DNA of 20,000 nucleotides, taken from the IMG/VR virus record IMGVR_UViG_3300031758_000013. One strand, 5' to 3'. Positions 4,404-19,998 of the stretch are shown piece after piece. This stretch comes from an uncultured virus (IMG/VR IMGVR_UViG_3300031758_000013) (lineage: Duplodnaviria > Heunggongvirae > Uroviricota > Caudoviricetes). Each line of letters starts with the position of its first letter. Positions within the stretch are counted from its first letter, which is position 1. The notes below the pieces were generated by a model, which ran no database searches, was not told the DNA's origin, and saw nothing but the letters and a program-made list of their open reading frames with translations. Position numbers and translations under genes: made by a program.

Positions 4404-4978
4404 TCACCTGCAAATTTATCTTTCAGTATCTTACGACATTTAAATGCATCATAATGAAAGAATGGTTTATATTTAGATAACTTTTTATATATGCTTGGCC
4501 AAAGTACCGTATCTTCAATCTTCTTATTCCAGTGACTAAAGAAACCAAGAATATCATTCAGAATAATAATAGTTTCAATAGATATTTGACGCCGCAAGTA
4601 TTGTTTAAGTAAATATGGATGTTGTCCATTCTTTACAATAACATTAGTATCAAAATCTGTCAACAACTTATTTAGATCTTGCTCAAAAATATAAGTCAAA
4701 GACTGTTGCCGCATGAGCCATTCAGAATAAACTTTCTCTGAATCATCGTTAAAGAGATCACCAACCCACTTGAGATCACCATCTACAAAATTGGCTACTA
4801 GATATTTAAGTGGATCTTTATGCTTGGATAGTTTATAGAATTGATACTTATCTTTGCGAGTCTCAAAGCTAGTTTGGCTTGCACCGATTTTGCCGTTGTA
4901 CTTGATATAATCATAATTGTCTGTAGTAAAATGGTTCTTAACAGCAAGAAAAGTCTTATAACTCTCGAACGGTGTCAT
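4400..4978 (-). CDS. 59: Helicase loader, T4 gp59 family
   Basis: MTPFESYKTFLAVKNHFT..YDYIKYNGK, FETRKDKYQFYKLS, ISIETIIILN, KYKPF; synteny 33-59-32. Confidence 0.95.
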   Translation of the reverse strand: MTPFESYKTFLAVKNHFTTDNYDYIKYNGKIGASQTSFETRKDKYQFYKLSKHKDPLKYLVANFVDGDLKWVGDLFNDDSEKVYSEWLMRQQSLTYIFEQDLNKLLTDFDTNVIVKNGQHPYLLKQYLRRQISIETIIILNDILGFFSHWNKKIEDTVLWPSIYKKLSKYKPFFHYDAFKCRKILKDKFAGD

Positions 4979-5220
4979 ACTGGAAGCCTCGCAGACTTTG
5001 GCAAATAATTCAAATCTTCAGCGGCCGCTTGAATCTTAGACCTAATCTTGATATTATTTTTAATGATAGAAGCAGCCGCTTCAATCTCTATATTATTCTT
5101 TTCACAGAGGTGGACGACGGCATCCATATAATCAAGTTTGTATTTTACTACTAGTATTTCTACTTCTTTAATAAACTTCTCATTCGACATAGTCTTTTGT
5201 AGAATAACGTCGTCCACCAT
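4975..5220 (-). CDS. 33: Late promoter transcription coactivator, T4 gp33 family
   Basis: FIKEVEILV...LDYMDAVVHLCEKNNIEIEAAASII...KIQAAAEDLNYLPKSARLPV; adjacent to gp59; start 5220 or 5226. Confidence 0.93.
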   Translation of the reverse strand: MVDDVILQKTMSNEKFIKEVEILVVKYKLDYMDAVVHLCEKNNIEIEAAASIIKNNIKIRSKIQAAAEDLNYLPKSARLPV

Positions 5221-5226
5221 AATCAA

Positions 5227-5805
5227 TTATCCTCGATAAAAAATGTGAGCACCAATTTTAGCAGTGCGATCAAAAACTCTACCCCATGATGGACTTACAT
5301 AGTCCGCATGATAGAACTTTGCACCTCTTGTTACGTCACCGTAATTTCCTAGGTACACATTTTCAGCGATCTCTTTGGCTTTGCGATATGCAGCCAGATC
5401 CTGAATTCGCTTTCCTCCTTCACACTTCCATGAAAACTGGCATACGCCTCTGGCCTTCTGATTGATGACCGCACATGGTGTTTTTGGGAAGCGTTTGTCT
5501 TTTACGCGGTTCAACACGACGTTGTTGACCGCAATCCTGCCCTTATAGGGTTCATGACCAGCTTCAAAATATGTATTCTCGGCCATGCATTGGATTTGTT
5601 GTTTATCGTAAGCGCTGAGATAAACAGGCTTCTTTACGATCTTTTCTTTTTCTATTACTTGAATTTCCGGAACCTTAATCACCTTGACCTCTGGTTCTTT
5701 CTGTGGAGTTGCAAGAGCTACACTCGTAACTGCAATGGCTCCTAGGAAAAAACCTTCACCCCAACGCAGATAAGGAAAGTCCTTCCTGTTTTCGAAAAGT
5801 TTCAT
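5227..5805 (-). CDS. Cell wall hydrolase, SleB/Hydrolase_2 family, with N-terminal hydrophobic anchor
   Basis: CMAENTYFEAGHEP..GRIAVNNVVLNRV...FPKTPCAVINQ...CQFSW...GAKFYHADYVSPSW...IGAHIFY. Confidence 0.95.
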   Translation of the reverse strand: MKLFENRKDFPYLRWGEGFFLGAIAVTSVALATPQKEPEVKVIKVPEIQVIEKEKIVKKPVYLSAYDKQQIQCMAENTYFEAGHEPYKGRIAVNNVVLNRVKDKRFPKTPCAVINQKARGVCQFSWKCEGGKRIQDLAAYRKAKEIAENVYLGNYGDVTRGAKFYHADYVSPSWGRVFDRTAKIGAHIFYRG

Positions 5806-5814
5806 TGTATCCTC

Positions 5815-6050
5815 TAATCTTAAATGATCTTGGCAAACAGAGACTGCTTTAAAGGCATCTCAGCCTAACAGTTTGTCCGTCGCTATGAGAAGATACAAAA
5901 TGAAATAACGAAGGTATCTTCCATCCATTTCCCTCTTACTGGAAATGCAAAATCATTATGGTTTCGTCAGTAGTATCTTAAAGATACTGCTCTCTAGCCC
6001 TAAGACTTGAAGCTTTGTAAGAGTCAATAGAGGTTGAACCTCCGTTGCGA
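5815..6050 (-). ncRNA. Candidate highly structured RNA / 5' leader of the cell wall hydrolase gene (family unassigned)
   Basis: Non-coding ~250 nt with at least six helices, a long-range closing helix (5957-5948 with 5832-5823) and two potential 7-bp loop pairings; starts just after TATAAATA. Confidence 0.65.
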
Positions 6051-6055
6051 TATTT

Positions 6056-6063
6056 TATTTATA
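6056..6063 (-). promoter_or_regulatory. T4-type late promoter
   Basis: Exact TATAAATA on minus strand, upstream of the structured leader and hydrolase; gp33 is present in the window. Confidence 0.85.
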
Positions 6064-6074
6064 CCATATATTAA

Positions 6075-6240
6075 GTTGCCGGATTCTGTTTCGAGGCTCC
6101 GGCGGGCCCAAGAGGTCATGCCGCTAGGCGGATACCTACAACGCTATCGTTATCGTTAGCATTTGTGTTTAATGGCAACTTTGCCAAGCAATCAGTCTCG
6201 AACCGCCCTATTCCGTCCCAGTCGATCCTATCTCACCCCC
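6075..6240 (-). ncRNA. ssrA: tmRNA coding piece (permuted two-piece, alphaproteobacterial type); tag ORF 6160-6116 = ANDNDSVVGIRLAA*
   Basis: Starts GGGGGTGAGATAGGATCGAC; tag GCT AAC GAT AAC GAT AGC GTT GTA GGT ATC CGC CTA GCG GCA TGA; terminal GCCGGA/TCCGGC stem; 3' end approximate. Confidence 0.96.
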
Positions 6241-6653
6241 GTCATAAATGATCTTGTCTTTCGACCTTGACCTTTTGCCCAACCTTCAGGAGGAATCTGA
6301 CCTTCTCTTAAACAACATTTCTGAGTTGGATCTTCTGGATTATGAAACCATCTTAATCCACCAGTTCCAGTTGGCTTAAACTCTCCGGGCTTTGGTCCAC
6401 GCCTTGCAGTTTTGTTAGCGTTTCCTTTAGCCGCGCCTCGTTTGCCAGCCTCACTTAGCATTTCCTTAACAAGTTGTTCTTTACTTATTAAGCCAGAAAG
6501 TCCCAACCATGCTAGTCGATCTTCCCATCTGCCATGTTGTTCGTAGAGAATTCTATGAGCTTCTGCATGTTCTTCAACAGTTAACTCAATCAAATTCTCT
6601 GGGTCATCAGTTCCACCCAAATACTTAGGCACTTTATGATGAATATGCTTCAC
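6228..6653 (-). CDS. HNH homing endonuclease (free-standing, mob-like) inside the tmRNA intervening segment
   Basis: HIHHKVPKYLGGTDDPENLIELTVEEHAEAH HNH motif; C-terminal WFHN...PPEGWAKG DNA-binding-type motif; GTG start with AGGAG SD. Confidence 0.92.
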   Translation of the reverse strand: MKHIHHKVPKYLGGTDDPENLIELTVEEHAEAHRILYEQHGRWEDRLAWLGLSGLISKEQLVKEMLSEAGKRGAAKGNANKTARRGPKPGEFKPTGTGGLRWFHNPEDPTQKCCLREGQIPPEGWAKGQGRKTRSFMTGVR

Positions 6654-6665
6654 TTAATCTCTCCT

Positions 6666-6689
6666 TCCTAGTTATTTATAAAACTAGGA
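6666..6689 (-). promoter_or_regulatory. Late promoter TATAAATA (6680-6673) embedded in a hairpin abutting the HNH RBS
   Basis: TCCTAGTT-TTATAAAT-AACTAGGA then AGGAGAGATTAA-GTG. Confidence 0.85.
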
Positions 6690-6711
6690 TCTTAAAGACT
6701 AAGATCACTTA

Positions 6712-6777
6712 TGGTGGAGGTGACGGGTACTGCCCCCGTGTCCTCAGAACCTTTATCGTTGATTGTCAACAACTGAT
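6712..6777 (-). ncRNA. ssrA: tmRNA acceptor piece (permuted two-piece)
   Basis: Ends GGAC-ACGGG-GGCAGTA-CCCGT-CACCTCC-A-CCA. T-loop GGCAGUA is typical of alphaproteobacterial tmRNA. CACCTCC pairs with GGGGGTG (6240-6234) giving G3.U70. 5' ATCAGTTGTTGA pairs with TCGAGACTGAT in the coding piece. Confidence 0.96.
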
Positions 6778-6783
6778 ATACTA

Positions 6784-6812
6784 TATATAATCTATTCTTG
6801 TTTAAATGTCAA
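6784..6812 (-). promoter_or_regulatory. Sigma70-type promoter of tmRNA
   Basis: TTGACA-N17-TATATA; predicted +1 near 6777, matching the start of the acceptor piece. Confidence 0.8.
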
Positions 6813-6815
6813 CAC

Positions 6816-7253
6816 TTAATTGCACCAAGATTGCTTTGCATCACCAAAATATTCTCTAGCATATCCGTTGGCAATTAACTGAGTTCGAAGACTCTTACCA
6901 TCAAGAATCATGTCACCCAGCACTCGGCCACCATACTTATCCCAATCATATAGGATATATCTAACTTTCACCGCTTTGGCCACTAGATCCTTTGTAAAGG
7001 CGCTCGCTGCTTGACCCTTTTCATCTTCTGCGGGACACTGCGCACGAAAACCTTTTTCTGGAGTATCTACACCATAGATACGAACTGAAATTTGCTTCTT
7101 AATTGGTGCTGGCACCCAGAGTGCTTCAATCTGTATAGTATCACCATCAGTTACTTTAATAACTTTGGCGTTATAAGCTTTACCAACCGGCGTCTTCTGT
7201 GCAAACACTGGAGTGGCCAGCGTCAGCGCTGCTAGAACAATAAACTTCTTCAT
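6816..7253 (-). CDS. Thermonuclease (staphylococcal nuclease-like) with signal peptide
   Basis: VIKVTDGDTI, VRIYGVDTPE, DKYGGRVLG, LIANGYAREY; N-terminus MKKFIVLAALTLATPVFA. Confidence 0.92.
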   Translation of the reverse strand: MKKFIVLAALTLATPVFAQKTPVGKAYNAKVIKVTDGDTIQIEALWVPAPIKKQISVRIYGVDTPEKGFRAQCPAEDEKGQAASAFTKDLVAKAVKVRYILYDWDKYGGRVLGDMILDGKSLRTQLIANGYAREYFGDAKQSWCN

Positions 7254-15153: not shown

Positions 15154-15182
15154 AATATATTATAGAACATAAAAAATGTCAA
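15154..15182 (-). promoter_or_regulatory. Sigma70-type promoter giving a probable leaderless mRNA
   Basis: TTGACA-N17-TATATT with 7 nt between the -10 box and ATG 15146; no SD. Confidence 0.8.
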
Positions 15183-15766
15183 CCACTATTTTTCGTGCGA
15201 AGATATTTTGCGATCATATGCATAATTGCTTGGTGCACATCTTCAGTTGCTTCGTATTCATGAATATCTACATGAATAGAAATATCAGCTAACTCGCGAG
15301 CTTTGCCTCCATTAAATCCAGTCAGAGCAATAGTTTTCATCTTGAGTTCTTTTGCTTTTTCTAAAGCTTTTACAACGTTGGGTGAATTACCACTTGAAGA
15401 GATAGCCACTAAAATATCATCTGGTCTACCAAGCTTATCTATCTGAAAGGAATAGACATCATCAAACGAGATATCATTGCCAATTGCAGTCATGAGTGGA
15501 ATATTAGCAGCGAGTGAAATTACACGTGGCTTAAAGTTAAGACGAGAACATCCCTTTGTATAGTCACAGGCCCAGTGCTGAGCAATTGCAGCAGATGCGC
15601 CATTTCCAATTGTAAAGATATTATTATAATAGTGAGTGAGTGATGCGATATAGATTAGATCTGCCGCCTTTTGAACTTGCCGGCGATCTACAGAATCAAA
15701 TCCATATTTGATAGTCTGAACGTGCTGATCATAGATAATATCTAGAAGATTAATCTCTGTAGACAA
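15179..15766 (-). CDS. gmhA: Phosphoheptose isomerase (SIS domain)
   Basis: IFTIGNGASAAIAQH, MTAIGND, AISSSGNSPNVVKA, ALTGFNGG, TEDVH; TTG start at 15766 with AAGGAG SD. Confidence 0.88.
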   Translation of the reverse strand: MSTEINLLDIIYDQHVQTIKYGFDSVDRRQVQKAADLIYIASLTHYYNNIFTIGNGASAAIAQHWACDYTKGCSRLNFKPRVISLAANIPLMTAIGNDISFDDVYSFQIDKLGRPDDILVAISSSGNSPNVVKALEKAKELKMKTIALTGFNGGKARELADISIHVDIHEYEATEDVHQAIMHMIAKYLRTKNSG

Positions 15767-16700
15767 TTCTTGCTCCTTCGTGTGAAATACCCACATCAAG
15801 ACAGGTACGATCTGAGAACTCGTGTCGAATCTTTTCTTTAGATTCTGTGAGAGCTAGTATATAACCACCTCCACCAGCACCTAACAATTTAGCACCAAGT
15901 GCTTCTGCTTCTTTACACCGTTCATACATATTATCTATATCGTTATTCGATATTTCATTACTCATTTGTTTCTTAAGAACCCAAGCAGAATTAAGAAGTC
16001 GACCGTATTCAAGTGGATTTACTTTTTGAGTGCCTTGCATCTCTGCTATACGAGCGAGTTCACGAATAGTAAAAGTCTTAGCTTCAAAATTAATACTATC
16101 TAAAATCTTAGATGCATGATGTTCCATATTTGTAGGAATCAAAATCATATAGTTCTCGATACTATTCGAATCAAGGCGCTTTACATCAACTCTTCCTTGG
16201 CCAAGATCATTAGCGTACTCAATGTAGTTCATACCACCAAATGCAGATGCAAACTGATCTTGCATGCCAATATTCCAGCCACACAAATCAATTTCAATAT
16301 GGCATGCAGTTTTTGCTACTCCATATGGATTTATATATTCATAACCAAGGTATGCACTGAGCGCCTTGACAAGAGCACACGCAAACGCTGACGATCCACC
16401 AAGACCATTTCCAATCGTCGGAATATCTGCAAATGAAGTGATTTCAATATTTGACTTAATACCAAAAAACTTGAGAGCATTACGAACAATATCGTTCTGA
16501 ATATCTTCTACATTTGTCACAAGTTCTTGTTTTGAATAAGATACTTTAATGTGTTTATGTGGTGTCTGCATGACTGCTACGTAGACATACTTATCAATAG
16601 CAGTAGAGATTGTAGCGCCACCCCATTGAGCAAAGTGAGTAGGAATATCACTACCCCCACCGAAAAAACTAACTCTGAGTGGTGCCTTGGATAAGATCAC
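15750..16700 (-). CDS. hddA: GHMP kinase, D-glycero-alpha-D-manno-heptose 7-phosphate kinase-like
   Basis: APLRVSFFGGGSD, GNGLGGSSAF, GMQDQFASAFGGMN, GAKLLGAGGGGY. Confidence 0.88.
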   Translation of the reverse strand: MILSKAPLRVSFFGGGSDIPTHFAQWGGATISTAIDKYVYVAVMQTPHKHIKVSYSKQELVTNVEDIQNDIVRNALKFFGIKSNIEITSFADIPTIGNGLGGSSAFACALVKALSAYLGYEYINPYGVAKTACHIEIDLCGWNIGMQDQFASAFGGMNYIEYANDLGQGRVDVKRLDSNSIENYMILIPTNMEHHASKILDSINFEAKTFTIRELARIAEMQGTQKVNPLEYGRLLNSAWVLKKQMSNEISNNDIDNMYERCKEAEALGAKLLGAGGGGYILALTESKEKIRHEFSDRTCLDVGISHEGARIVYRD

Positions 16701-17658
16701 GGTGTTGTTCCTTTAATGATGCAATAAGACCCTTCCACTTCGGCATAATTGATTCCCAAGAGAATCGAGTATCAGTATAAGTTTTAATAAAACTTAGAAG
16801 GTTTGTTAAGTCATTATTTTGTATGTTTTCAATAGCATACATAAGAGTATGAGCGAAAATATTAGCATGAAGATTTTGATCTTCATGATCTCCATCATAT
16901 TGTACTGTTAGACCACCACATGTATCAGAAAGAGCAGAGAAGTTAGGGTGAACAGCCAAACAACCAGCAGACATAGCCTCGATAAGAGATCTGCATGAGG
17001 TTTCAGGCCAGATACAAGGGTATGCAAAAATGTGTGCTCTTTGATATGCTGCACGAACTGTCTCCTGATCTGCCCAACCATGATAGTTAATTTGTGGGTG
17101 TTCTTTCATTCTCTTGAAGAGAGGTTCATATTGTTGATCTCTGCTTTCCCAGCCTGGACCATAGATACCAAACGATGAGAAAACATCTAGTTCAATGTTT
17201 GGATACCGTTCAGCTAAAGCACAGAACACAGGAACTAGAATCTCTAGTCCACGATGAGGTGTGGATGTATAAATGAGACGTATCTTATCCTTTGGCTTTT
17301 CAACAAATGGAATTGGTTCAACACCAGTTTCAATAACTGATGACTGATGACTATATGGAACTCCAAGATAGTCACGATACTGTTGATATTGCCAGTTGCT
17401 GCTAAAGACCAACTTATCAAAGCGTTCTCTTGAAGCCGGGTCTTTAAGATGTGCAGCTTCTGGGTCGAGAGGTAAATCGTGGAGATGATAGATCTTAATT
17501 CGGTTAGGATCAAGGTCGCGGACGCGAGCAGTGATAATTTGAATACCATCGAGCTCTTCCCTTGTAAGTCGATTGAAGAGGCCTCGTGTGGTAAGTTCTG
17601 TTCCACCATTCGACTCCTTGTTGAGCTCATTCAATTCAATTAGATCTTCATTATTCAT
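16669..17658 (-). CDS. Glycosyltransferase, GT-B fold (GT4-like)
   Basis: GGTE, LIYTSTPHRGL, FAYPCIWPETSCRSLIEAMSAG; ATG 17658 (MNNEDL) preferred. Confidence 0.9.
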   Translation of the reverse strand: MNNEDLIELNELNKESNGGTELTTRGLFNRLTREELDGIQIITARVRDLDPNRIKIYHLHDLPLDPEAAHLKDPASRERFDKLVFSSNWQYQQYRDYLGVPYSHQSSVIETGVEPIPFVEKPKDKIRLIYTSTPHRGLEILVPVFCALAERYPNIELDVFSSFGIYGPGWESRDQQYEPLFKRMKEHPQINYHGWADQETVRAAYQRAHIFAYPCIWPETSCRSLIEAMSAGCLAVHPNFSALSDTCGGLTVQYDGDHEDQNLHANIFAHTLMYAIENIQNNDLTNLLSFIKTYTDTRFSWESIMPKWKGLIASLKEQHRDLIQGTTQS

Positions 17659-17992
17659 CAATATCTCCGATAAATTCACGGTCAGCAAGGAAGAAGTACT
17701 CTTTATCATTGAAAGCTTTATCATCGATCCATATATCGTATGACGGCTTTCCTAGACGAACTTCGTGGAACTTGCATCCCCAGTCATTTAGTTGTTGGTT
17801 GGTAAGTTCGGTCCAGTCGATTCCCGACCCTGAACCACGGGCAGTCCAATAGATGATGGTGTGCCCTTGATCGTATAGTTTATTTATCTCTTCGATACGA
17901 TGATAGAATGGGATGGACATATCATAACGATGTACATCATTGATCTTAGGTGTCAGACAAACAGTCTGGTCAATGTCTACCATATAGATCAT
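17651..17992 (-). CDS. Small HAD-superfamily phosphatase (capsule-biosynthesis type)
   Basis: VDIDQTV, IYWTARG, GKPSYDIWIDDKA. Confidence 0.88.
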   Translation of the reverse strand: MIYMVDIDQTVCLTPKINDVHRYDMSIPFYHRIEEINKLYDQGHTIIYWTARGSGSGIDWTELTNQQLNDWGCKFHEVRLGKPSYDIWIDDKAFNDKEYFFLADREFIGDIDE

Positions 17993-19427: not shown

Positions 19428-19814
19428 TTATATAATACTTTTCTCAATTAATGTCAACTCATTTTCTCTATCTATATACTTATACTCTACTTTAGTGGGA
19501 TTCCATTCTTCAATAGCATCAAATACATCTTGAATATTGAGTGCACTGCATGTGTATACGTCAAGTTGTGCTAGAGCAGGTTCTGCTTCATCCCAAACAT
19601 GAAGAGCAATATGAGAAGTTTCGATAATAGTTACAGCAGTTAATCCTTGATTACCAACCATATCAGAATATACTGCATATGGACCCATAAGTATGTTCAT
19701 GCCAATCTTATCGACGAGATTTCTCATCCAGTCTTTTATTTCGTGTGGCAAATATGGAGGTTCGCTCAGCTCTGCTCTTACAATTAAATGCTTATGTTCT
19801 AATATCTTACCCAC
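19428..19814 (-). CDS. speD: S-adenosylmethionine decarboxylase proenzyme (SpeD-like)
   Basis: HKHLIV, GLTAVTIIETSHIALHVW, QLDVYTCS; GTG 19814 likely start (track start 19859). Confidence 0.85.
   Translation of the reverse strand: MGKILEHKHLIVRAELSEPPYLPHEIKDWMRNLVDKIGMNILMGPYAVYSDMVGNQGLTAVTIIETSHIALHVWDEAEPALAQLDVYTCSALNIQDVFDAIEEWNPTKVEYKYIDRENELTLIEKSII
19429..19457 (-). promoter_or_regulatory. Sigma70-type promoter
   Basis: TTGACA-N17-TATATA, same architecture as the tmRNA promoter. Confidence 0.7.
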
Positions 19815-19815
19815 C

Positions 19816-19998
19816 TCATAAAGTCTCCTGTTCGGGGTTAAAGAGTAGAGCCTTGACATGACTCGCTTGAATTTTACAACTTACCCAGTTATTGTAAAAT
19901 TTTGGATCTAGTATTGCATCATGATCAAAAATATACTTTGTTTCAAAGTAATTGCACTCACCACGAGATTTACATAAACGAAGAATAGTTCGTTTGAA
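19816..19998 (-). CDS. C-terminal part of a GIY-YIG/Seg-like phage protein (truncated by window edge)
   Basis: FKRTILRLCKSRGECNYFETKYIFDHDAILDPKFYNNWVSCKI...*; resembles the F-x-R-x-IL...E...YN end of GIY-YIG domains. Confidence 0.6.
   Translation of the reverse strand, partial: FKRTILRLCKSRGECNYFETKYIFDHDAILDPKFYNNWVSCKIQASHVKALLFNPEQETL

Follow-up and report, generated by a model that had tools for sequence, protein, structure and literature searches.

What fills the long gap that separates a cell-wall hydrolase gene from a late-promoter-like site upstream of it in the genome of an uncultured virus of the class Caudoviricetes (IMG/VR record IMGVR_UViG_3300031758_000013)? In the 20,000-nucleotide (nt) stretch of that genome analysed here (the window), the gap, promoter-like site included, spans positions 5806-6063 on the minus strand, and a sequence-only reading, made without database searches, had proposed that it encodes a densely structured RNA of about 250 nt belonging to no family it could recognise. 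Coordinates, strand and flanks were read correctly: TATAAATA lies at 6063-6056 on the minus strand, and a gene for a Hydrolase_2 (PF07486) protein begins with the ATG at 5805. What lies between them is a real and new family of RNAs of about 245 nt, referred to below as the leader RNA, which occurs only in a tight group of uncultured T4-like phages from fresh water, in every case ahead of the same exported hydrolase gene. The leader RNA proper (5806-6050, minus strand) is predicted to start about 6 nt past TATAAATA and extends to the base preceding the hydrolase ATG.

The family is defined by its distribution and by the way in which it has been conserved. Homologues of the 258-nt stretch, with identities of 73-100%, were found at 80 of 80 related viral loci, these being the best 80 of the 148 relatives found by the hydrolase protein. 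An exact-pattern scan returned 111 stretches from viral contigs, two of them a chance match in a coding region, and 64 stretches from metagenome contigs, and the exact core pattern was absent from the genomes of 185,579 prokaryote species, one genome per species. A second pattern, anchored on helix P5 (see below), returned 109 stretches from viral contigs, of which the only one lacking the first pattern was a chance match in a coding region, and no more distant relatives were found in this way. Among cultured phages searched with blastn, only a neighbouring HNH-like open reading frame (ORF) was matched and no phage with the leader region was found; hydrolase relatives among cultured phages reach at most 44% identity. 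Across 1770 pairs of 60 distinct leader-plus-gene sequences, mean pairwise identity is 0.847 for the leader, 0.888 for hydrolase codon positions 1 and 2 and 0.598 for position 3, and since the leader so far exceeds the adjacent third codon positions, it is under strong purifying selection. Conservation begins exactly at ATAAATA, which is present in 77 of 78 aligned leaders (locus L180 has CTAAATA), and the sequence 5' of it is unconserved, so that TATAAATA marks the 5' limit of conservation.

The position of the leader RNA relative to its neighbours is equally informative. Wherever the start codon is readable, the same kind of transmembrane-anchored protein is encoded 3' of the leader. The distance from leader to ATG is fixed, and the linker between the 3' strand of helix P3 and the Shine-Dalgarno (SD) sequence is 6-9 nt long and variable in sequence in all relatives, whereas the distance from the gene for transfer-messenger RNA (tmRNA) to the leader ranges between about 10 nt and about 1.3 kb at the 19 loci with a tmRNA. 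The proposed placement between a late-promoter-like site and a cell-wall hydrolase is thereby upheld, with the distance to the hydrolase fixed. Contigs from freshwater metatranscriptome RNA libraries cover the leader and are weak evidence of its transcription; one of them bridges leader and ORF, and two from a single RNA library include the leader but not the ORF. In one run, two contigs end within 2-6 letters of 6033-6034, a weak hint at most, as contigs cannot give a 5' end.

That the leader is a folded RNA, and on which strand, is apparent from folding energy and from covariation. The minus strand folds to -73.2 kcal/mol compared with -54.2 +/- 4.5 kcal/mol for 200 dinucleotide shuffles, none of which folds as well (z -4.26); the plus strand gives z -2.63. 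A structure was proposed on a plain MAFFT alignment of 59 distinct leaders (A3), from which a covariance model (R1) was built, and with this model the minus strand scores 277.7 bits and the plus strand 20.3 bits. In A6, a realignment that took in 78 distinct leaders of viral and metagenome origin and, being fitted to the model, leans towards R1, the structure including its pseudoknot comprises 66 pairs, and 96.9% of 5142 pair cells are standard. Compensatory double changes occur at 24 of the 66 pairs (250 cells), and none of 500 shuffles reaches any of five measures; in slid controls, in which the 3' partners are shifted by 1-3 columns, only 44-58% of cells are paired and 7-9 pairs show double changes. 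A3 gives the same picture (96.7% paired, 22 double-change pairs, 6-10 in slid controls). The column pairs ranked highest in a mutual-information scan belong to P2, P6 and P4, and the same scan, when used to look for extra tertiary pairs, including pairs of the linker or SD with the loops, returned only clade-linked pairs. The RNA must be that of the minus strand, the only one that fits the invariant G-U pairs (at the base of P5, for instance, in 78 of 78 sequences) and the alternation of U-A with U-G in P3. Two of the checks that the sequence-only reading had named, folding against shuffled sequences and covariation in relatives, have thus both come out in favour of a densely structured RNA, with homologues at every related locus compared.

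The overall fold consists of a 5' hairpin, two peripheral hairpins (P2a and P2), a four-way junction (P3-P6) and a pseudoknot (PK1), all on the minus strand. P1, the 5'-terminal hairpin GGAGG/CCTCT (CCTCC in relatives; 6043-6039/6033-6029), is 100% paired in 78 sequences with one compensatory pair. It is followed by the 5' strand of PK1, CTCTTAC (6023-6017), and by P2a (6011-5992; TTC..GAG plus AGTC/GGCT around a variable loop), which is 100% paired; its stems show almost no variation, so that covariation neither supports nor refutes it. P2 (GCAGTATC/GATACTAC, 5990-5983/5977-5970) is a peripheral hairpin of variable length, in which 6 of 7 pairs covary, with up to five pair types per position; its loop is often UUCG-like, and some relatives carry an extension of about 20 nt. 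The A-rich single strand J2/3 (5969-5958), TGACGAAACCAT in the window and CCGACGAAAACACT in most relatives, has nearly invariant columns in A3 and leads into the long-range helix P3, whose 10 base pairs close the four-way junction with P4, P5 and P6. The 5' strand of P3 (AATGATTTTG, 5957-5948) is invariant and its 3' strand (CAAGATCATT, 5832-5823) varies at 6 of 10 pairs, on this side only and always by A/G exchange opposite U, and the helix is 100% paired in 78 sequences.

Within the junction, P4 (CATTTCC/GGAAATG, 5947-5941/5932-5926) carries the 8-nt loop AGTAAGAG, in which GTAAGAG (5939-5933) is the partner of CTCTTAC in PK1. Two pairs of P4 covary, changing from UA to CG and from CG to UA in 8 sequences, and its loop occurs in three variants in 234, 15 and 2 of 251 loci. 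P5 (GGAAGATA/TATCTTCT, 5922-5915/5895-5888) is 100% paired with nearly invariant stems and a loop of 7-23 nt that varies in length and sequence and shows 1-nt insertions and deletions. P6 (5883-5833) is an unbranched stem-loop composed of GC/GC, ACGGA/TCTGT, ACTG/CAGT and AGGC-TGAGAT-GCCT, with 13 of 15 pairs covarying. Its ACTG/CAGT step is off by one column in part of A6 and hence only 73% paired there, which realignment with the covariance model did not remedy; when the 55 distinct P6 segments were instead folded singly, 54 gave an unbranched stem-loop, 49 of the 55 with a 6-nt UGNGAY loop.

Six of the nine pairings in the sequence-only reading are supported by the 78 homologues. GAGG/CCTC corresponds to P1, AGTATCT/AGATACT to P2, CATTTCC/GGAAATG to P4, GAAGATAC/GTATCTTC to P5, the 10-bp helix AATGATTTTG/CAAGATCATT to P3 and CTCTTAC with the loop GTAAGAG to PK1. 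The three others fail on the same homologues. An H-type pseudoknot between the loop TCGTTAT and ATAGCGA is paired in 90.2% of cells, which equals the shuffled mean and is reached by 348 of 500 shuffles, and the TCGTTAT loop is missing altogether in L042 and L066. The hairpin GAGATGC/GCAGTCTC, nested in ACAAAC/GTTTGC, is paired at 80.2% compared with 79.7% in shuffles, with a covariation score below that of all 500 shuffles, and covariation in this region backs the unbranched P6 stem-loop instead. A recurring motif pointed out in the same reading, TTAGGGCTAGAGA and TTAGGCTGAGA, is indeed present at 6004-5992, where it forms the 3' strand of P2a, and at 5868-5858, where it forms the 5' strand and loop of P6d (both minus strand). 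The two copies shift in parallel by lineage, being AGATGGCTAGAAA and ATATGGCTGAGAT in most relatives and AGTTGGCTAGAGA and AGTTGGAGTTGAGAC in the L016 group.

Natural variants bear on PK1 and suggest which part of the leader RNA forms its core. All 7 pairs of PK1 are standard in 78 of 78 sequences. The 5' strand changes from A to G in 9 sequences, giving a G-U pair. In L201, the loop reads GTAAGGG, giving a U-G pair where 76 sequences have U-A, and in L230 the same loop occurs together with CCTTTAC, giving C-G at the same pair. PK1 is thus supported by a single compensatory series (U-A to U-G to C-G), a signal that is real but thin. In L058, an ORF on the opposite strand (182 amino acids, L058:2258-2830), labelled GIY-YIG-like by eye, has taken the place of P1, P2a and P2. 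This locus retains TATAAATG, CTCTTTAC, J2/3 and the whole four-way junction ahead of an intact hydrolase gene, and because PK1 and the junction were kept when P1-P2 were lost, it points to these two as the probable core. The alignment of 78 variants, the L058 deletion and the compensatory variants of L201 and L230 make the leader RNA directly testable in vitro.

The leader RNA matches no family in Rfam, as the sequence-only reading had anticipated. In a search of the window with Rfam 15 (4227 models) at the gathering score, only two tmRNA families were found, ending at 6074, and the same two alone were found in 5600-7000 at E<=1. In 5780-6080 at E<=10, the only match was to FTX_3, a mammalian long noncoding RNA model, which at 18.3 bits (E 0.78) lies far under its gathering score of 55 and is rejected as a chance match. 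At 20 related loci, Rfam at the gathering score found tmRNA and transfer RNA (tRNA) only, with a permuted tmRNA at 19 of the 20, and left the leader unmatched. Models searched at E<=10 without a match include those of the glutamine riboswitch (RF01739 and RF01704; the leader is a four-way junction of about 245 nt), the cyclic di-AMP (c-di-AMP) riboswitch ydaO-yuaA (RF00379) and the self-cleaving ribozymes (hammerhead, twister, twister-sister, pistol, hatchet and HDV-like). Small ORFs in the leader are also rejected, as translation from its two AUGs yields 42 and 33 distinct peptides, 9-36 codons long and in differing frames. A description of the leader RNA was not found in the main texts of the literature searched.

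What, then, might the leader RNA do? The reading that we favour, at roughly even chances and judging from sequence, is that it is a new cis-acting element that controls translation initiation, and perhaps stability, of the hydrolase mRNA. It would form the 5' leader of a late mRNA encoding the exported hydrolase together with the abutting gp33 and gp59 genes. TATAAATA matches the T4 late-promoter consensus, and because of this match, and because the phage carries a gp33 coactivator gene, it is read as a putative late promoter. Transcription would most likely start about 6 nt past TATAAATA, placing P1 at the extreme 5' end. PK1, with 7 base pairs between CUCUUAC and the P4 loop GUAAGAG, locks the junction to the 5' part of the leader, with P2a and P2 lying inside the pseudoknot loop, and the ribosome-binding site follows 6-9 variable bases behind the fold, which would set the amount or timing of the wall-cutting enzyme. 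Since neither the leader nor the interval between fold and ORF contains an intrinsic terminator, any such control would not act by termination.

A specific switch can be drawn from the same parts and is offered tentatively, being rather unlikely in our view. The P4 loop imitates the sequence of the SD region (UAAGAGG). With PK1 formed, CUCUUAC would be held by the P4 loop and the SD would be free; with PK1 open, CUCU(UA) could pair with (UA)AGAG of the SD over 4-6 base pairs, and translation would be turned on by a ligand or protein able to stabilise the junction. The P4 loop and J4/5 (5940-5918, minus strand) also present UAAGAGG, 7 nt and AUG, the layout of the true hydrolase ribosome-binding site. 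The ORF from this AUG is unconserved (33 different peptides of 9-35 codons), and the site may serve as a ribosome decoy or standby site.

Several points weigh against cis-acting control and against this switch. The SD and the ATG lie outside every covarying helix. Pairing of CUCU with the SD is predicted by RNAalifold, which cannot model the pseudoknot, and this CUCU:AGAG pairing is only 4-6 base pairs long, invariant and without covariation. L114 (TGAGG) and L023 (CGAGG) shorten it without compensation, and the change that compensates PK1 in L230 creates a C-A mismatch in it. The 5' end of the leader is a prediction from sequence, and the RNA-library results are contigs, which cannot show transcript starts, from libraries in which DNA may be present. 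Kinship of the sequences inflates the shuffle-based statistics, an objection that the slid controls alone answer. Finally, late transcription requires gp33 to be present already, which means that the operon must have further promoters, and the leader may also lie within longer read-through transcripts.

Among other explanations, a new riboswitch class deserves consideration, although we think it rather improbable; the junction and pseudoknot would serve as its aptamer and the SD next to them as its expression platform, and by sensing a metabolite or second messenger it would adjust the lysis enzyme, and with it gp33, to the condition of the host. The conservation pattern is the one generally expected of an aptamer, with covarying helices and invariant junction strands and loops (AUUGA, CGACGAAAAC, GAU, AUAGC and UGNGAY), but protein-binding RNAs and ribozymes show the same pattern. 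The size and complexity of the leader RNA resemble those of large riboswitches, and bacterial cell-wall hydrolase genes are classic targets of c-di-AMP riboswitches; in addition, marine relatives carry a glutamine riboswitch at the equivalent place (PMC9004378). No riboswitch model was matched, even at E<=10, and there is no ligand candidate. Nor did RNAalifold and the mutual-information scan reveal a conserved, mutually exclusive helix; a CUCUUA:UAAGAG alternative is possible, without covariation. We regard it as conceivable, at similarly low confidence, that the family is a phage-only new riboswitch class (or, less likely, a new ribozyme) that times hydrolase and coactivator, as a freshwater counterpart of the marine glutamine riboswitch. 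Control through a bound protein, with a RegA-like repressor, ribosomal protein S1 or an autogenous regulator repressing or activating hydrolase translation at an operator, is unlikely. RNA operators do occur in T4-type phages, at gene 32, gene 43 and the targets of RegA, and the P4 loop and J4/5, which copy the layout of a ribosome-binding site, could act as decoy or standby. The known T4 operators are, however, small hairpins or pseudoknots at ribosome-binding sites rather than junction folds of 245 nt, and no candidate protein was identified.

It is quite unlikely that the leader RNA is a stable noncoding RNA or a self-cleaving ribozyme that is released from the transcript and stands ahead of the hydrolase by layout only. 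Its complex tertiary fold with a 5'-terminal hairpin, the second stable RNA gene (tmRNA) that adjoins it in most relatives and the two contigs of one RNA library that cover the leader without the ORF would all fit such a product. Yet there is neither a terminator nor a conserved 3' hairpin before the SD, the spacing to SD and ATG is fixed and the distance to the tmRNA variable, no ribozyme family was matched, and one RNA-library contig bridges leader and ORF. Of the four functions offered in the sequence-only reading, an independent noncoding RNA is the least likely, because of the missing terminator, the SD 6-9 bases past P3 in all relatives and the bridging contig; among riboswitch, ribozyme and translation control the data do not choose. 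We consider it extremely improbable that the conservation arose at the DNA level, through a homing-endonuclease target or a packaging site, or that it reflects a small protein. Endonuclease genes do lie beside the leader (the HNH-like ORF of the window) and inside it (the GIY-YIG-like ORF of L058), and the leader contains a well-spaced SD-AUG, but compensatory changes and G-U pairs are strand-specific signatures of RNA, and the peptides are unconserved and shift in frame; covariation and the peptide comparison both contradict this explanation. The leader could also be taken for the 3' part of the phage tmRNA, i.e. the extra pseudoknots of its coding piece, since in the window it comes immediately after the tmRNA gene, and pseudoknots past the tag frame are a feature of tmRNAs. 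This has next to no probability: the alpha_tmRNA model is matched end to end (1-355) and stops at 6074, a variable spacer and the conserved TATAAATA separate the two, and 0.5-1.3 kb lie between tmRNA and leader in L021, L029, L049, L055 and L068. A variable distance to the tmRNA and a fixed distance to the hydrolase contradict it.

How does the leader RNA compare with known regulatory RNAs of phages and bacteria? The glutamine riboswitch is a small fold of three stems with an E-loop and a pseudoknot. Melnitz and Mosig, marine T4-like phages of SAR11 and OM43, carry this riboswitch (the glnA RNA motif) between ssrA and the coactivator gene, and it is thus, like the leader RNA, a structured cis-regulatory RNA of a T4-like aquatic phage, placed past a permuted ssrA of the alphaproteobacterial type and upstream of a coactivator gene (PMC9004378). 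In contrast, the leader RNA shares with it no similarity in sequence, covariance model or fold, is about four times larger with its four-way junction and long-range pseudoknot, and is separated from the coactivator gene by the hydrolase gene. A functional parallel is provided by T4 itself, in which lysozyme gene e (as well as soc, 49 and I-TevI) shows structure-dependent late translation: in its early transcripts, the ribosome-binding site of gene e is hidden by a simple hairpin, within which the late promoter is located. Both cases concern a T4-type phage with a late promoter and an mRNA structure ahead of a wall-degrading enzyme that is kept late. Here, however, the entire fold, P1 (6043-6029) included, begins downstream of TATAAATA (6063-6056), SD (5815-5810) and ATG are outside the covarying helices, their sole candidate partner, CUCU, is invariant and bound in PK1, and the fold is far more complex.

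With the c-di-AMP riboswitch (ydaO-yuaA, RF00379), the leader RNA has in common that both are large, pseudoknotted leaders ahead of wall hydrolase genes; unlike that riboswitch, it lacks a pseudo-twofold architecture and, by the exact-pattern scan, is found only in phages. T4 gene 32 has a small leader pseudoknot of the H-type, at which binding of the gene 32 protein is nucleated, and this leader, like other SD-proximal pseudoknot operators, resembles the present one as a phage mRNA leader with a pseudoknot and presumed translational control. In the present leader, the gene product is a hydrolase, and the strand that pairs with the junction loop lies about 80 nt from it. Conserved structured leaders with an unknown trigger in T4-like aquatic phages also include the orphan motifs wcaG, manA and PhotoRC-II, reportedly described from cyanophage and marine sequences by Weinberg et al. 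in 2010 (PMC2864571); these are Rfam families, none of which matches the leader, and are much smaller. Phage leaders so large and conserved are rare, and most have turned out to be riboswitches or ribozymes. The present one precedes the gene for a host-wall-cutting enzyme in abundant, uncultured T4-like phages of fresh water. Should it respond to a signal, it would reveal how a lytic phage links the synthesis of a lysis enzyme to the condition of its host, and it would extend the known regulatory RNAs by a new fold.

The minus strand is the coding strand of every gene around the leader, and the local order is tmRNA, leader, hydrolase, coactivator. The SD of the hydrolase gene, AGAGGA (5815-5810, minus strand; its GAG invariant), is followed by the ATG at 5805-5803. 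The encoded SleB-like Hydrolase_2 cell-wall hydrolase (5227-5805, minus strand; 192 amino acids; PF07486, E 1.4e-24) has an N-terminus that, judged by eye, is a hydrophobic segment. Abutting its stop codon is the gene for the gp33-like late-transcription coactivator (4975-5226, minus strand; PF16805, E 1.8e-15), at which junction GAGGA lies inside the last hydrolase codons and is followed by an ATG at 5220. The neighbouring genes are T4-type replication and late-transcription genes (gp32, gp59, the gp33-like coactivator, RNase H and PhoH), and gp32 shares about 60% identity with its cyanomyovirus counterpart. The same gene string contains SIS-domain, GHMP-kinase and glycosyltransferase genes (resembling those of heptose or lipopolysaccharide sugar synthesis) and an S-adenosylmethionine decarboxylase gene, at 15179-17724 and 19428-19859 on the minus strand.

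Directly upstream of the leader, and separate from it, lies a permuted two-piece tmRNA gene (6074-6816, minus strand; RF04321 79.9 bits, RF01849 62 bits). It is complete, circularly permuted and of the alphaproteobacterial type, with both Rfam models matched end to end and a tag frame, ANDNDSVVGIRLAA, at 6160-6116 that ends in a stop codon at 6118-6116. Phage-encoded permuted tmRNA is a known kind of gene (PMC9004378). ARAGORN found no tRNA or tmRNA in the window, the tmRNA being found by Rfam alone, and this miss is probably due to an insert of about 470 nt in the intervening segment of the gene. The insert is present only in the window and in L064, other relatives having about 35-150 nt there. 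The intervening segment holds the HNH-like ORF (6228-6680, minus strand; 141 amino acids), which has a Pfam HNH match under the cut-off (E 0.001) and 72.6% DNA identity to a gene of Synechococcus phage S-SKS1 annotated as homing endonuclease; the 5' end of the tmRNA coding piece falls within its last codons, and a second TATAAATA of the window stands ahead of it, at 6680-6673. In L029, seven tRNA genes (27-833) lie upstream of the tmRNA. The tmRNA-leader locus seems to be an insertion hotspot. Between the tmRNA end and the late promoter, most relatives (e.g. L008, L012 and L017) carry a conserved hairpin pair, CTACCAG...CTGGTGGTAG (A1 columns 66-122), which is absent from the window and from L003 and may be a 3' structure of the tmRNA or a terminator.

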